From positions 1 through 52,152 of IMG/VR virus record IMGVR_UViG_3300021197_001711: a stretch of 52,152 bases of DNA; one strand, written 5' to 3'. The translations under genes and the position numbers were made by a program. The notes beneath the pieces were generated by a model. The model searched no databases and had not been told where the DNA came from. It worked only from the letters and a program-made list of their open reading frames with translations. This stretch comes from a virus (taxonomy: Duplodnaviria > Caudoviricetes). Below, one piece after another: positions 10,709 through 34,491 of this stretch (within the stretch, counting starts at the first letter, position 1; each line of letters starts with the position of its first letter).

Positions 10709-12298
10709 ATGGATCAACTGGATGAAGCCAAACTATTAGCAGCTCTTCTCGGTGTACTTAAAAAAGAAAACAGCAGAGTAAAAGACGAGCTACTAAAAGA
10801 AATATATGGAAGCCTCCAGAAGGACATCCAGGATCAAACTGGTGTCAAATATCTTGAGCTAGACGAAGTTGAAAACCCTGTACCCATCCAAGTTTTTAAA
10901 GGTGAGAAGGGTGCTGAAGGTCCGCAAGGTAAGCGGGGTCTAAAAGGTGCAAGAGGTGATGTAGGTCCTAAAGGAGAGCGAGGAGCTCTGGGCCCTCGAG
11001 GAGATGTCGGTCCTTTGGGTCCAATGGGACCCCAGGGTATTCGTGGTGTTGCAGGTGAACAGGGCCCAGCTGGTAAAGACGGTGCTGATGGTATAGATGG
11101 TAACACACCTGACATTAAGCCGCTCGAGGATAAGTTTACCAGACTCTTCAACGAATTCAAAGGTTCTGTATCCGCCCAAGTCACTCGAATGGCCTATGCA
11201 AAGAGTCCTACTTCTGGAGGCAGTTTTGCAGGTTCAGGTGAAGTAAATTTATTACGACTGGATGACGTTGACACAACCAGTCTTGCTGATGGTAAATTTT
11301 TAAGATATAATGCTACCTCTGGTAAACTTGAATTCGTAGAGGGTTCGGGTTCTGCTGATCTATCGAGTTACGATGGTCACATAATACCAGGGGCAAACAA
11401 TACATACGATCTTGGTTCAGCTCAGCGTCAATGGCGTGATCTGTATTTGAGTGGCACGTCCCTTTTTATTAATGGTGTGCCTGCGATACAGCAAGATCCT
11501 GAAACAGGTAATATCGTATTATCTGCAAATACTGTTATACAAACAGCAAACGGTGTAAACAATCCTGTAGCATCGCAACCAAACTTAGACGTCTATCTTG
11601 AAGTTGCTAACGTATCTTCAATAATGACCTCGCGACTTGAGCCTTATCTTAAAGTAGCAAACAGTACCAACTTTGCAACAACTTCAGACCTCAATAACTA
11701 TCTTCAAGTAGCAAACAACTTCAGTGGTGCATATGGTGATCTGACTGGTAGACCTAGCTTAGATGTATATGCATCCAACACCGCCTTGCAATTAAAGGCT
11801 GATGCAGCTGACCTGGGTCAATACTTACAGGTAGCAAATAACAAAACAATTGTTGCTGGTAATAATGTTTCACTTACAACTAATGCAACGTCTATTGTAA
11901 TAAACAGTACAGGAGGCGGTGGCGGAGGTGGTGGAGATCTTGATCAGTATCTACAAGTTGCCAATGCAACATCGTTATTATCTAACAAAGCTGATACAGC
12001 ATTATTAAATGACTATCTACAAGTTGCCAATACGGCTAATCTGATAACTAGCGTACAAAACCAAGGTGCTGGTCAACCACTAGTCAAGAGTAACATAAAT
12101 AATATACTGACCTTAAATACATTGAAGGCCGGTCCCAATATCACCATAGAAGAAAACAGTGATGGTGAGATAGTAATTTCAGCGACAGGAGAACTCTCCG
12201 TCTCTGATTCAATTGATTTTGGTTTTGTTAATAACGATTTCGGATCCATTGCTGATGCAGCAGAATCCGATCCTCAATTCGATTTCGGAACACTATAA
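10709..12298 (+). CDS. Collagen-like fibre protein with YLQVAN repeats
   Basis: 23 consecutive Gly-X-Y triplets, six YL(Q/E/K)VAN repeats, three C-terminal DFG motifs. Confidence 0.8.
   Translation: MDQLDEAKLLAALLGVLKKENSRVKDELLKEIYGSLQKDIQDQTGVKYLELDEVENPVPIQVFKGEKGAEGPQGKRGLKGARGDVGPKGERGALGPRGDVGPLGPMGPQGIRGVAGEQGPAGKDGADGIDGNTPDIKPLEDKFTRLFNEFKGSVSAQVTRMAYAKSPTSGGSFAGSGEVNLLRLDDVDTTSLADGKFLRYNATSGKLEFVEGSGSADLSSYDGHIIPGANNTYDLGSAQRQWRDLYLSGTSLFINGVPAIQQDPETGNIVLSANTVIQTANGVNNPVASQPNLDVYLEVANVSSIMTSRLEPYLKVANSTNFATTSDLNNYLQVANNFSGAYGDLTGRPSLDVYASNTALQLKADAADLGQYLQVANNKTIVAGNNVSLTTNATSIVINSTGGGGGGGGDLDQYLQVANATSLLSNKADTALLNDYLQVANTANLITSVQNQGAGQPLVKSNINNILTLNTLKAGPNITIEENSDGEIVISATGELSVSDSIDFGFVNNDFGSIADAAESDPQFDFGTL
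10901..11107 (+). repeat. Collagen Gly-X-Y repeat region
   Basis: GEK-GAE-GPQ...GID-GNT, 23 triplets counted from the translation. Confidence 0.9.
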
Positions 12299-30612: not shown

Positions 30613-31557
30613 ATGTCAAAACAATATGCATTTTCCGAAACTTTCTATTCTGTGCAGGGCGAAGGTCACTACACAGGGGTGCCATCTGTATGGCTTCGGT
30701 TCTTTCTTTGTAATCTACAATGTGATGGATTTGGTCAAGATGATCCGACCAATCCTGATACATATGAGCTACCGTATAAGGACTTCGATAAGCTAGACGT
30801 GAACGATATTACTGAGCTACCTGTTTGGGAGAAGGGTTGTGATAGTTCGTATTCGTGGTCTAAGAAGTTCAAACATCTTCAACAAAAGCAAACAGCAGAG
30901 GAAATTGTTGAGACGTTAAGGCAAGAAATGATTAACGAGTTCAATCCAAACGGAAACTATCAACATCCTATGTCAGGTAGATCGGCACATTTAGTACTCA
31001 CAGGTGGTGAGTCATTGATGAAGCATGCCCAACAGGCAGCCGTGGATCTGATCAACGTATATCATGCAAAGCAGACGCATGAAAGACCATGGAACATAAC
31101 ATGGGAAACGAATGGCACTCAAGCGCTTACAGAAGATTTTACAAGGGTATTTGGGAACAGAGGTCTATATTCTGGTGAACTATTCTTCTCATGTAGTCCT
31201 AAACTATTTACAGTATCTGGTGAGAAACCCAAGAAAGCTATACGACCTGATGTAGTTGCTGAGTATGAAAATCTTGGTAAATCAGTACGGCAAAGAACAC
31301 AAAGAGATCAAGCTCCTATAGGTCAGCTTAAATTTGTAATGGGTCCTAAGAAAGAGCAGTGGGAAGAACTCGATGAAGTCATACATCAGTTTAGACAAGC
31401 TGGAGTTAACTGGCCAGTATGGATAATGCCTGTCGGGGCTACTGTAGAAGGACAAAAAATGATCGACGGTGATGTTGCCAACATAGCCCAGGATAGGGGA
31501 TACTGTGTATCAGCTCGAGTTCATACTTATATGTGGGGCAACGTGATAGGAGTTTAA
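30613..31557 (+). CDS. queE: 7-carboxy-7-deazaguanine synthase (radical SAM)
   Basis: FYSVQGEG, LRF, CNLQC...CDS, LTGGE, ETNGT, SPK, RVH; next to queD/folE. Confidence 0.9.
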   Translation: MSKQYAFSETFYSVQGEGHYTGVPSVWLRFFLCNLQCDGFGQDDPTNPDTYELPYKDFDKLDVNDITELPVWEKGCDSSYSWSKKFKHLQQKQTAEEIVETLRQEMINEFNPNGNYQHPMSGRSAHLVLTGGESLMKHAQQAAVDLINVYHAKQTHERPWNITWETNGTQALTEDFTRVFGNRGLYSGELFFSCSPKLFTVSGEKPKKAIRPDVVAEYENLGKSVRQRTQRDQAPIGQLKFVMGPKKEQWEELDEVIHQFRQAGVNWPVWIMPVGATVEGQKMIDGDVANIAQDRGYCVSARVHTYMWGNVIGV

Positions 31558-31558
31558 C

Positions 31559-32125
31559 ATGAAACTAAGATGTACAAAATCATATTTTAATTTACCCGTT
31601 GCTCATATGCAATGGTTTGATACAGACGAATCTGGCGAAGCGTGCACAGGTCCTTGTTCAAAGTGGCATGGATACGATCGATCGGTTCATTTTGAGTTTG
31701 CTGGTGAAGCAGACGAACATGGTTGGATTGTAGGTTTCGGTGACCTCAAACCAATTAAACAATTCTTGGAATTCTATTTCGACCATACAGCTCTTATATC
31801 AGCTGATGATCCTCGGATAGAAAAAGCAGTGGAAGCTCGTGAAAACGGTCTTGTTGATCTGAGGATATTGCCTTATGGTGTGTCTATGGAGATGAGCTCC
31901 ATATTCATATGGGAACAGGTAAATCCTTTTATCTATTCTGTCACTGATGGTAGAGCTTATATTTCAAGAATAGAATGCAGAGAGCATGAAAAGAATTCTG
32001 CGTTTATAGAAATAGAAGAAAAGATAGCACGTAAGCAAGGTAAGCAATCAGAAAAATATCTTGTCCAGATATCCGACTGGCGTAATTTTATCAAGCCTGG
32101 GGACATACTCAAAAGGTATAGCTAG
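31559..32125 (+). CDS. queD: 6-carboxytetrahydropterin synthase
   Basis: AHMQW, CSKWHGY (variant of CxxxHGH), FDHT, EHEKNSA. Confidence 0.85.
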   Translation: MKLRCTKSYFNLPVAHMQWFDTDESGEACTGPCSKWHGYDRSVHFEFAGEADEHGWIVGFGDLKPIKQFLEFYFDHTALISADDPRIEKAVEARENGLVDLRILPYGVSMEMSSIFIWEQVNPFIYSVTDGRAYISRIECREHEKNSAFIEIEEKIARKQGKQSEKYLVQISDWRNFIKPGDILKRYS

Positions 32126-32215
32126 CAGTCCCTAAATTATTGTTTTTATATATACTCGTGTTCGTAGGAGATCCCTACGTTCACTTTCGTAACTATATCC
32201 CAAAAGGAGAAAAAA

Positions 32216-32320
32216 ATGTCCACTAAAAGTGAGACTATGTACGCGCTCGCCCAAACTTTAGTAATTACTTGTGTTATTACACTTATGCCCGCAGCTGTTA
32301 TATATTTGTCGTTGGTATAA
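32216..32320 (+). CDS. 34-aa predicted membrane peptide (below ORF-track cut-off)
   Basis: SD AAAAGGAG; MSTKSETMYALAQTLVITCVITLMPAAVIYLSLV. Confidence 0.6.
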   Translation: MSTKSETMYALAQTLVITCVITLMPAAVIYLSLV

Positions 32321-32448
32321 TGATCAAGCACGCTCTATTTTACATGTTGTTTTGTATGCACCTCTACGTTGAAAATGGGGAGTTTCCTAGAACCTTTCTC
32401 AAAACCAATGTGGAGGTGATTCAACCTAAAACAAGGTTGACTAATTGA
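32320..32448 (+). CDS. 42-aa peptide with hydrophobic N-terminus
   Basis: TAATG overlap with the previous ORF; MIKHALFYMLFCMHLYVENGEFPRTFLKTNVEVIQPKTRLTN. Confidence 0.4.
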   Translation: MIKHALFYMLFCMHLYVENGEFPRTFLKTNVEVIQPKTRLTN

Positions 32449-32500
32449 AGTATATCTTATATAATAGTTGTAATGTTTAACAATGTAGTGAATATAAATA
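32437..32500 (+). promoter_or_regulatory. Tandem sigma70 and late promoters for folE operon
   Basis: TTGACT (32437)-17 nt-TATAAT (32460); TATAAATA at 32493. Confidence 0.75.
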
Positions 32501-32502
32501 TT

Positions 32503-32614
32503 AGAGCAACAAGGTGTTCCGGAGGTTGCGCTTGCAATGAGCTTTTCTCCGGCCCAGGCCTGACCGTCCTCGCCTCTCTACGGTCGTTAAACTCAACCCG
32601 AGATGGAGAATACA
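32503..32614 (+). ncRNA. Candidate structured cis-regulatory 5' leader of folE
   Basis: GC-rich island with stems CCGGAG/CTCCGG, GCAAC/GTTGC, GACCGT/ACGGTC and two anti-SD segments. Confidence 0.5.
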
Positions 32615-33286
32615 ATGTCGAAAATTAATCCGGAACTAGGCCGTGAGGTAAACAAGTACCTCGATACTTTAGGTATCAATACTCCCATAACTCCTTTAGT
32701 AAAAGAAGATCGTGAAGAAAAGCTGCGTAAAGTGGCTGAGCTCACACAGGAGATGTTAGAAGTACTTGGTCTTGATTTAACTGACGATTCATTAGAAGAA
32801 ACACCAATGCGTGTTGCCAAGATGTATGTTGACGAAATCTTTTCTGGTCTTCGTTATGATACCTTTCCAAAGTGTACTACTGTTGAGAACAAGTTTTGCC
32901 ATGGTGAAGAATTTGTTCTCGAGAAGAACATTACGATGTATTCTGATTGTGAACACCACCTTAGACCTATCATTGGTAAGGCACACGTTGCATACATTCC
33001 AGGAGAAAAGGTCCTTGGTCTATCTAAGCTCAATCGTATCACACAATACTTTGCACAACGTCCTCAAGTGCAGGAACGTCTTACTCAGCAAATTGCTCAT
33101 GCAATAGCGTATATTACTGAATCTGATAATGTCATGGTTGTTATAGACGCTGGTCACACTTGTGTCTCACAGCGTGGTATTAAAGACACAAACAGTACTA
33201 CAGTTACAGCTTGTTGCCTTGGTAAATTTGGAGCGAAAGATAGTGAGCTCCGTAAAGAAGTGATGAATAATATCAACCGCGGTTGA
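32615..33286 (+). CDS. folE: GTP cyclohydrolase I
   Basis: ETPMRVAKMY, CEHH, GLSKLNRI, RPQVQERLT, HTCVSQRG; start set at ATG 32615 behind SD GGAGAA. Confidence 0.95.
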   Translation: MSKINPELGREVNKYLDTLGINTPITPLVKEDREEKLRKVAELTQEMLEVLGLDLTDDSLEETPMRVAKMYVDEIFSGLRYDTFPKCTTVENKFCHGEEFVLEKNITMYSDCEHHLRPIIGKAHVAYIPGEKVLGLSKLNRITQYFAQRPQVQERLTQQIAHAIAYITESDNVMVVIDAGHTCVSQRGIKDTNSTTVTACCLGKFGAKDSELRKEVMNNINRG

Positions 33287-33304: not shown

Positions 33305-33640
33305 ATGAAGAAAAGTATATGGGTAACCTTCCAGAAGGAAGGGATACACTGCTATCCTAATGCTCCAGCTGGAGTTGAATTTCTTAAACATCCTCATCGC
33401 CATATATTTCACTTTCGAGTAGAGATCGAAGTATTTCACGATGACAGGGATATTGAATTCATCTTGTTTAAACGAGAGCTGGAAGCATTGTATAGTGAAG
33501 GCGTTCTCGAGCTTGACTATAAGTCATGTGAAATGATTGCCGATGAGCTTGCAGAATTCATTCTCGAGACCTACACGGGTAGAGAACTGATAATAACAGT
33601 TAGTGAAGATAACGAAAATGGTGCCACCTGTAGGTACTAA
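33305..33640 (+). CDS. dpdL: QueD paralogue, predicted CDG decarboxylase DpdL
   Basis: T-fold-like, LKHPHRHIF matches the LxxxHRHxF signature I recall for DpdL; SCEMIA and VSEDNENG; in a deazaguanine cluster that already has a true queD. Confidence 0.7.
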   Translation: MKKSIWVTFQKEGIHCYPNAPAGVEFLKHPHRHIFHFRVEIEVFHDDRDIEFILFKRELEALYSEGVLELDYKSCEMIADELAEFILETYTGRELIITVSEDNENGATCRY

Positions 33641-33657: not shown

Positions 33658-34491
33658 ATGTCTATCGACTTTTGTCATATATGTCCGACCCCGCACCTTG
33701 AAGAATTTGTTAAAGGTAGAAACTTTCACCTTGCTTTAGCACATCTAATAGAAATAGATGACACTTATACATCGTTCTACCAAAACGAAATTGATTCTAC
33801 TATCATACTTGACAACTCTGCTTTTGAAATGTATAAGCAGGGTCGGCCTATGTACCCTCCAGAAAAACTTATTGAAATGGGTAAGCGTATTCACGCTGAC
33901 TATATTGTCATGCCCGACTATCCTAATCAGAAAGGTCAAGTTACTATCGATGCTGCGATAGAGATAGCACCTGCTCTACGTGCCGAAGGATTTAAAACAT
34001 TCTTTGTACCGCAATCTGAAATAGGTGACAAGGAAGACTTTATTGATGCATTTAAATGGGCTGCATCCAGCGAGCATGTTGATTATATTGGCGTATCAAT
34101 ACTGGGTGTACCAAATGCATATGGCGTTGAAAAGGATAACAACCTTCAACGTTTTCTGAGTCGCTGGAAGATGATGGAAGAACTCTGGGATCGAGGATTG
34201 CTTCATGCAGCTCTTGATAACGGTAAGAAAATACATTTCCTAGGTATGGTTGATGGTCCAAATGAGATTGAGTTGGTATCAGAATACGCAAAGTATATTG
34301 ACACGTGGGATAGCTCTGCTGCTGTGTGGGCTGGCCTTAATGATATACCGTTTGATGACTCTCCGTCAGGTCTCATAGATGGAAAGTTCGAAGAGGAAGT
34401 TGATTTTGACCTCGAAACGGATGATAATGATCTATTGAATACAGCTATGTTCAATATTGATTATATTGATAAACTTTGTGAGGAAGTCTAA
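33658..34491 (+). CDS. dpdA: TGT-like guanine transglycosylase, DpdA3-like
   Basis: TIM-barrel TGT-type motifs IILDNSAFE, IVMPD, FFVPQ, IHFLG, TWDSS; cluster context. The subfamily call is inference. Confidence 0.7.
   Translation: MSIDFCHICPTPHLEEFVKGRNFHLALAHLIEIDDTYTSFYQNEIDSTIILDNSAFEMYKQGRPMYPPEKLIEMGKRIHADYIVMPDYPNQKGQVTIDAAIEIAPALRAEGFKTFFVPQSEIGDKEDFIDAFKWAASSEHVDYIGVSILGVPNAYGVEKDNNLQRFLSRWKMMEELWDRGLLHAALDNGKKIHFLGMVDGPNEIELVSEYAKYIDTWDSSAAVWAGLNDIPFDDSPSGLIDGKFEEEVDFDLETDDNDLLNTAMFNIDYIDKLCEEV

Follow-up and report, generated by a model that had tools for sequence, protein, structure and literature searches.

The viral genome fragment considered here, a stretch of 52,152 nucleotides (nt) assigned to the Caudoviricetes (IMG/VR record IMGVR_UViG_3300021197_001711, positions 1 to 52,152) and referred to below as the window, has an estimated completeness of 28% and carries T4-type genes, among them a gp46-like gene, a gp45-like gene and a gene for peptide deformylase. 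On its plus strand, the gene folE, encoding GTP cyclohydrolase I, is preceded by a leader of about 110 nt, described in a first-pass annotation, made from the letters alone, as a riboswitch-like structured element. Comparison with related phages showed that the pairings of this leader are under selection, that the leader is a conserved multi-pseudoknot RNA, and that the loop of one of its hairpins pairs with the ribosome-binding region of folE. All of the stems named in that annotation, as well as the Shine-Dalgarno (SD) sequence and the ATG, were found at their places when read directly from the letters. The start codon of folE is the ATG at 32615 and not the one at 32603, since the homologues begin with MSK(N)NPELGR and the 32603 ATG is missing in most relatives. 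The parts of the leader and the gene itself are located as follows.

32506-32510, plus strand: 5' strand of P1, GCAAC, pairing with 32525-29
32511-32518, plus strand: J1/2, AAGGUGUU, a conserved unpaired loop crossing P2
32519-32524, plus strand: 5' strand of P2, CCGGAG, pairing with 32547-52
32525-32529, plus strand: 3' strand of P1, GUUGC, directly abutting the 5' strand of P2 (0 nt between)
32530-32542, plus strand: P3, a variable hairpin, GCUU-GCAAU-GAGC, inserted in the third loop of the pseudoknot
32543-32546, plus strand: conserved U run before the 3' strand of P2
32547-32552, plus strand: 3' strand of P2, CUCCGG
32554-32558, plus strand: 5' strand of PK-B, CCAGG, probably pairing with CCUCG at 32568-72, the first five bases of the P4 loop
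32562-32567, plus strand: 5' strand of P4, GACCGU
32568-32579, plus strand: 12-nt loop of P4, CCUCGCCUCUCU (DNA CCTCGCCTCTCT), with 32568-72 in PK-B and 32573-78 as the anti-SD
32580-32585, plus strand: 3' strand of P4, ACGGUC
32586-32592, plus strand: conserved tail GUUAAAC
32594-32600, plus strand: tail CAACCCG, a candidate partner (3' strand) for 32520-22 and 32525-28 in an alternative helix
32600-32606, plus strand: GAGAUGG, pairing with the anti-SD at 32573-78, U32604 being bulged
32605-32608, plus strand: SD sequence GGAG, 6 nt before the start codon
32615-33286, plus strand: folE (GTP cyclohydrolase I; PF01227, E 2.8e-60)

Homologous leaders were gathered in a model-based alignment of 45 hits with 39 distinct sequences, all of them from uncultured marine T4-like phages and immediately preceding folE. 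When P1, P2, P4, PK-B and four loop-SD pairs were pooled over these 39 leaders, 93.6% of 993 cells were paired against 78.7 ± 0.7% after shuffling, and 155 cells carried double changes against 46.7 in the shuffled sets (0 of 500 shuffles as high); sliding the strands out of register left 32-52% of cells paired. The covariance model behind the alignment, R1, was fitted to P2 and P4 only, so the counts for P1, PK-B and the loop-SD pairing were not biased by the alignment. Additionally, P2 and P4 emerged without prompting when RNAalifold was run on 28 leaders aligned simply with MAFFT, and 9 of 11 pairs showed double changes. The occurrence of G.U pairs in several helices identifies the plus strand as the functional RNA. 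The conservation and covariation expected of a structured leader before folE were thus found among the relatives.

The 5' domain is an H-type pseudoknot made of P1 and P2, with conserved loops (AAGGUNUU and the U run) and the inserted variable hairpin P3; the first-pass annotation had proposed this topology, and the CCGGAG/CUCCGG helix does cross the GCAAC/GUUGC helix. In P1, 97.9% of cells were paired and two of the five pairs showed double changes (G-C to A-U and C-G to G-C); in P2, which was also predicted by RNAalifold, the values were 96.6% and six of six. Among the 39 distinct leaders, the unpaired bases of J1/2 were kept almost throughout (A32512 in 36, G32514 in 37, U32515 and U32518 in 39), as were those from U32543 to U32545 in the U run (36-37 of 39). 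P3 formed a hairpin of at least 3 base pairs (bp) in 31 of 39, with the loop GCAAU in 18 and a GNRA loop in 4, and was absent or unfoldable in the other eight, e.g., L013 and L018.

The 3' domain is built around P4, which was paired in 99.1% of cells with double changes in four of six pairs, one pair occurring in four pair types. The CCU at 32568-70, which opens the P4 loop, was invariant (39/39), as were A32589 and A32590 of the GUUAAAC tail. In this pyrimidine-rich loop, the six or seven bases that follow the first five pair with a purine tract of the ribosome-binding region, and this pairing was seen in every family member. Considered alone, it was paired in 97.3% of cells against 86.4% after shuffling, with 23 double-change cells against 6.4 (0/500), and cognate loop-SD duplexes averaged -7.88 kcal/mol against -6.20 ± 0.23 kcal/mol for permuted ones (0/2000). 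Loop and SD changed together among the relatives, as CCUCUU/AAGAGG, CCUUUUC/GAAAAGG, UUCCUUC/GAAGGAA and CUCUUC/GAAGAG. That the P4 loop pairs with the SD region had been proposed in the register TCTCT/GGAGA; the pairing itself stood, and the register did not, since covariation favours 32573-78 with 32600-06. The supported register covers the first two bases of the SD sequence GGAG.

PK-B, between CCAGG and the first half of the P4 loop, is probably a third pseudoknot, judging from its columns, with weaker support than P1/P2, P4 and the loop-SD pairing. Its cells were paired in 76.2% of cases against 68.9% after shuffling (0/500), and its closing pair was C-G in 18 leaders and G-C in 11. The inner position (32555/32571) was C.C in 22 leaders, A-U in 8, G-C in 4 and G.G in 4.

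A further pairing, between the 5' strand of P2 and the 3' strand of P1 on one side and the tail preceding the SD sequence on the other, was first suggested by a mutual-information screen. Of 267 cells, 88.4% were paired in register, compared with 19-44% in slid registers and 84.9% after shuffling (0/500), and two pairs carried double changes; the triplets were CAG/CUG in 13 leaders, CGG/CCG in 7 and CGA/UCG in 1, plus wobble variants. Because this helix cannot coexist with P1 and P2, it resembles an expression platform, and the sequences are suggestive of a switch. Another competing pairing, that of TTCTCC with GGAGAA, had been put forward in the first-pass annotation and was rejected. This complementarity is present in the window and was not specific for cognate partners in the family: cognate duplexes averaged -5.0 kcal/mol against -4.75 ± 0.19 kcal/mol for permuted ones, with 185 of 2000 permutations as good, a result similar to that of the negative control (J against the SD sequence, 42/2000).

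As for the occurrence of the element, a search with FolE gave 80 viral loci, in 42 of which FolE was 66-95% identical to that of the window; upstream sequence was available for 41 of these 42, and 33 of the 41 carried a leader homologue. No homologue was found at E up to 1 in 38 more distant folE loci (FolE identity 37-57%). Within the sequence already gathered around the relatives, to which the scans with R1 and a further model, R2, were applied, R1 matched 41 times in 599,674 nt, and all 41 matches ended at folE starts, one per locus. A degenerate P1-P2 pattern gave 16 matches in the viral collection, all 16 of them upstream of folE; 14 were on contigs of the folE set, and two new ones, identical to each other, preceded a more divergent folE. 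In the metagenome collection, the same pattern gave at least 118 matches, with at least 17 true leaders, each then followed by a folE start, and in the cellular genome collection, with at least 120 matches, one true leader (L109) was present among those listed, after a filter for P2 complementarity; the 183 pattern matches failing this filter and the other passing ones were judged by eye and filter, not by model. An exact 20-mer from the window matched none of the viral contigs, and a blastn search of 50,697 phage records with the leader returned chance-level fragments alone (E of at least 1).

When whole records were scanned, the leader was present exactly once per contig in four viral contigs, one being a complete 138-kb genome that has terminal repeats, and likewise once in Vibrio phage D479. 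The leader element thus belongs to folE alone, in one copy per genome. Two cultured phages carry it: the two-domain leader precedes folE in Aeromonas phage Ahp1_CNU-2021 (Straboviridae; R1 E 1.9e-6, R2 E 5.6e-5), and in Vibrio phage D479 the 3' domain is kept behind two plain hairpins before folE (R1 E 1.1e-4, R2 E 2.5e-7). With 39 distinct sequences, a covariance model and these cultured representatives, the family is fit for an Rfam entry.

Some further observations were made along the way. The L109 record (CALBDR010000119.1, 1,495 nt), binned in a 'Candidatus Melainabacteria' metagenome-assembled genome, has a leader nearly identical to that of L011 and is probably a mis-binned phage fragment. 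In Vibrio phage Bakedbeans (L338:2255-2330), a 130-nt gap before folE contains a hairpin, GAUGUCC/GGACAUC, which resembles the 3' domain of the leader in its CCUU-initiated pyrimidine loop and in a UAAAC tail before the SD sequence; the gap was unmatched by both models at E up to 1 (for R2 also at E up to 10 with filters off). Another phage group (L071, L074 and L076-L080, e.g., L074:2810-2862) has a conserved leader of a different type between queC and folE; its outer stem, GAGGUG/UACCUC, encloses a hairpin with the loop CUUUCC, complementary to the SD sequence AAAGGAAA, and an A-rich tail follows. No Rfam family matched this leader, be it at gathering scores or with E allowed up to 10, and the model of the 3' domain matched it weakly (E 0.2-0.9).

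The genes surrounding folE are the following.

30613-31557, plus strand: queE-like gene upstream of folE
31559-32125, plus strand: queD-like gene upstream of folE
33305-33640, plus strand: DpdL-like QueD paralogue of 111 amino acids (aa), a proposed 7-carboxy-7-deazaguanine (CDG) decarboxylase, assigned by homology and the motif LxxxHRH
33658-34491, plus strand: DpdA-like guanine transglycosylase of 277 aa, assigned by predicted fold

The pathway context assumed in the first-pass annotation therefore holds, with queE-like, queD-like, folE, DpdL-like and transglycosylase-fold genes side by side. Neither of the two genes downstream of folE received a functional annotation in Pfam or PHROGs. The 277-aa protein, which had no Pfam match, is regarded as DpdA-like because its predicted fold (pLDDT 94.2) best matches, in the PDB, archaeosine and bacterial tRNA-guanine transglycosylases (E ~5e-8, TM 0.5-0.6). 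No QueC and no Pfam match to a tRNA-guanine transglycosylase was found within the fragment. Homologues of the DpdL-like protein occur in Cellulophaga phages phiST, phi13:1 and phi19:2 and in Acidovorax phage ACP17, the phages in which, according to the accessible part of PMC10516641, DpdL was defined as a proposed CDG decarboxylase and 7-deazaguanine replaces G in DNA. The gene set predicts 7-deazaguanine (dDG) DNA in this marine T4-like phage group, and folE has these same neighbours whether or not a locus carries the leader. Given these neighbouring genes, the leader stands before the gene for the first enzyme of a 7-deazaguanine DNA modification pathway, and probably before its operon.

Two promoter-like sequences precede the leader.

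32437-32465, plus strand: sigma-70-like promoter TTGACT-17-TATAAT, a candidate early promoter with 11 of 12 consensus positions
32493-32500, plus strand: T4-type late promoter box TATAAATA, whose end lies 5 nt upstream of P1

The window contains 13 copies of the box TATAAATA, the T4 late-promoter consensus, and all are on the plus strand; 3.58 copies are expected, and none of 100 shuffles has as many. Such a distribution agrees with T4-type late promoters and with transcription of the fragment in one direction. Of the 39 distinct leaders, 26 have ATAAATA within the 40 nt preceding P1, mostly at a distance of 5-11 nt. Since the late box lies just upstream of P1, the late mRNA probably begins at the leader element. 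The sigma-70-like promoter is a consensus match, the total for the region being 3 against 3.9 in shuffles. Contigs from three seawater RNA libraries span the leader into folE with 0 differences (32535-32686, 32519-32683 and 32482-32632), which is weak support for transcription, as DNA carry-over is possible and RNA ends, strand and level are not visible in such contigs. The X18 contig starts at 32482, upstream of the late start, and could reflect read-through from the early promoter or DNA carry-over. Under T4-style temporal control, a late promoter inside a hairpin frees the ribosome-binding site on late transcripts; this arrangement is ruled out here, as the late box lies upstream of the entire structure.

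Taken together, the sequences suggest that the leader is probably a new translational cis-regulator of the riboswitch kind. The general riboswitch trait of a covariation-supported structured domain with conserved unpaired bases is present. That it is, more precisely, a metabolite-sensing translational OFF riboswitch of a new class acting on folE is a reading to which we would give about even chances, and it is favoured because invariant unpaired bases, an SD-capturing pseudoknot, a candidate alternative pairing and the logic of the pathway point the same way. The cis-acting two-domain leader of about 110 nt would start essentially at the 5' end of the late folE transcript; its loop-SD pseudoknot would lower binding of the 30S subunit and hence translation of folE, the GTP-consuming entry step of the pathway. 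The folding state of the upstream pseudoknot domain may set the stability of the loop-SD knot, and the candidate alternative helix between the P2-5'/P1-3' strands and the pre-SD tail could provide the switch. Among possible ligands, a guanine-like product of the pathway, 7-deazaguanine or CDG, would be the most plausible, and guanine, GTP or a pterin are candidates as well. We know of no natural riboswitch for 7-deazaguanine or CDG. The fuller proposal, of a phage-only class for one of these two compounds that throttles GTP cyclohydrolase I during the replacement of genomic guanine, is itself unlikely; such a class would be used by T4-like marine phages and their Aeromonas and Vibrio relatives and would couple ligand sensing to capture of the SD sequence by the loop.

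Several observations weigh against an OFF riboswitch on folE. The fold of the single sequence is at chance level and not unusually stable: the minimum free energy of the leader is -32.1 kcal/mol against -31.57 ± 3.62 kcal/mol for shuffled sequences (z -0.15), with 86 of 200 shuffles at least as stable, so that it is the comparison of relatives, and not the single sequence, that places the leader beyond chance. In the alternative helix, four of the seven pairs (GUUG/YAAY) lie between nearly invariant bases, and this complementarity could have arisen by chance; moreover, four leaders (L261, L017, L035 and L037) have an uncompensated A.C (CAG/CCG). A permutation test of duplex energies was not significant for PK-B (1371/2000), which was therefore retained on column covariation alone. 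L013, L039 and D479 lack the canonical P1/P2 pseudoknot and retain the 3' domain; not every member, then, has the presumed aptamer domain. The whole leader is missing from 8 of the 41 close folE loci (L010, L015, L020, L023, L024, L027, L033 and L042), which have the same neighbouring genes, and is thus dispensable. The family is also narrow, being confined to one FolE clade and two to three distant cultured phages and to one gene only, a pattern that fits autoregulatory protein-binding leaders equally well.

The explanation that survives best beside the riboswitch is that of a protein-binding translational operator, in which FolE itself, by autoregulation, or a phage repressor stabilises the SD-sequestering knot. 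The sequence data fit a riboswitch and a protein operator alike, and the conserved unpaired bases could equally be protein contacts; the element serves a single gene in one copy per genome within one FolE clade, and it travels with folE while the upstream gene changes. The pseudoknot in the T4 gene 32 leader and ribosomal-protein leaders are parallels. However, to our knowledge no RNA-binding activity of GTP cyclohydrolase I has been described, close FolE relatives (80-86% identity) work without the leader, no candidate repressor gene co-varied with leader presence within ±3 kb, and the two-domain fold with its candidate alternative helix is more elaborate than usual operators. We consider an operator rather unlikely. 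If a protein is bound, the leader would be a new autoregulatory operator in T4-like phages.

A constitutive structure acting without any ligand, which would damp folE translation to a set level and/or shield the 5' end of the late mRNA from decay, would account for a fold that begins a few nucleotides from the predicted late transcript start, for a loop-SD pairing found in all members, and for L013 and D479, in which the 3' domain is kept and a plain hairpin replaces the 5' pseudoknot. Neither damping nor end protection needs five covarying helices, invariant loop bases and a conserved alternative pairing, however, and the leaderless relatives rely on an ordinary SD sequence; this explanation appears unlikely. 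Some other kind of RNA, i.e., a self-cleaving ribozyme, a small RNA gene or a coding region, is very improbable, for although the double-pseudoknot topology is superficially like that of hepatitis delta virus (HDV)-like ribozymes, no ribozyme or small RNA family matched even at E up to 10, the element always abuts the start codon, and single-base indels together with compensatory changes among the relatives rule out a conserved reading frame or leader peptide. The HDV fold is a nested double pseudoknot with P3/L3 between the 5' strand of P2 and the 3' strand of P1; the leader has 0 nt there and no Rfam match, and an HDV-like ribozyme was rejected accordingly.

Should the leader sense a metabolite, as in the favoured riboswitch reading, it would represent a new riboswitch class and one of few that regulate a phage's own genes. 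It would also give the pathway that places 7-deazaguanine for G in phage DNA, an anti-restriction strategy, its first described regulatory element; phages would then control, through translation, how much GTP is drained into the hypermodification of their genomes, and a compact natural sensor for a 7-deazapurine would be available.

The G+C-rich island claimed before folE is real: the G+C content of 80-nt windows peaks at 0.612 across 32495-32621, compared with a mean of 0.406 (standard deviation 0.055) for the whole stretch. It is the second highest among 18 islands with an 80-nt G+C content of at least 0.55; the strongest lies at 10901-11109 (0.625), and there are 16 other sites besides.

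The newness that had been proposed for the element was borne out against Rfam 15, in which no family matched the window at its gathering score; in 20 loci, only one transfer RNA was matched. At E up to 10, nothing was found within the element (701 nt around it, and the L019 leader), the matches being weak and unrelated. A tRNA gene (65.8 bits) lies at L025:6194-6267, on a related contig, with folE about 2.5 kb upstream of it. The stretch 32146-32218 of the window gave weak matches, far below gathering, to freshwater-2 (19.8 bits) and preQ1-II (18.2 bits); these cover the hairpin CGUAGGAGAUCCCUACG, flagged as terminator-like, and a strong SD sequence before a 34-aa open reading frame (32216-32320), probably an ordinary terminator and ribosome-binding site. 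In full-text searches and two 2026 preprints, supplements being outside this scope, no description of the leader element was found, and the literature found on phage 7-deazaguanine, within the same scope, did not mention 'preQ1 riboswitch'.

Among the known elements, the T4 gene 32 leader offers a general precedent, with a 5' H-type pseudoknot that serves translational control as a nucleation site for the gene's own single-strand-binding protein; this leader is not known to capture the SD sequence in a loop-SD helix, unlike the folE leader. The preQ1-I riboswitch (RF00522) consists of a roughly 34-nt hairpin and an A-rich tail whose 3' end pairs with the loop. Its topology is like that of the 3' domain of the folE leader, with a hairpin, a UUAAAC tail and a 3' pairing to the loop, whereas the latter domain is 48 nt long and has a second helix of 6-7 bp; the preQ1-I model gave no match to the leader at E up to 10. 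The preQ1-II riboswitch (RF01054) and the folE leader share a hairpin with a 12-nt pyrimidine-rich loop, the 3' half of which pairs with the SD sequence, and both build the SD sequence into a pseudoknot. The folE leader differs in having no hairpin between stem and SD sequence, in its additional pseudoknot domain on the 5' side and in the probable pairing of its loop with an upstream strand, and the sole match of RF01054 (18.2 bits, E 3.3; gathering 47) was the one at 32146-32218, outside the element.

THF-II, or the 'folE motif', is, according to the accessible parts of PMC6800512 and PMC9881143, a bacterial cis-regulatory RNA upstream of folE that controls translation. It shares the position upstream of folE with the phage leader, but has a simple architecture (PMC6800512, PMC9881143) and occurs in bacteria, whereas the phage leader has crossing helices in place of a single-hairpin layout; in Rfam, THF-II matched the leader neither at its gathering score nor at E up to 10.

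The closest in architecture is preQ1-III (RF02680), described in the accessible part of PMC11625349 as an RNA of about 100 nt in which five regions pair and two pseudoknots form, and the folE leader, at about 110 nt, likewise has several helices and pseudoknots. The model of RF02680 did not match the leader at the gathering score (window and 20 loci) or at E up to 10. Both RNAs have an H-type pseudoknot with an inserted hairpin, which in preQ1-III is the sensing domain, and in both a separate hairpin loop provides an anti-SD pairing with a 3' SD sequence (helix P5 of preQ1-III); the ligand of preQ1-III, preQ1, is moreover a compound of the 7-deazaguanine family, from a pathway related to that of the folE leader, as far as that part of the source goes (PMC11625349). 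The two differ in that the anti-SD hairpin lies inside the pseudoknot in preQ1-III and 3' of it in the folE leader, and in that the former is associated with queT in Ruminococcaceae and the latter with folE in marine T4-like phages (PMC11625349). On this comparison, the folE leader files as a new family of SD-sequestering structured leaders and as a riboswitch candidate.

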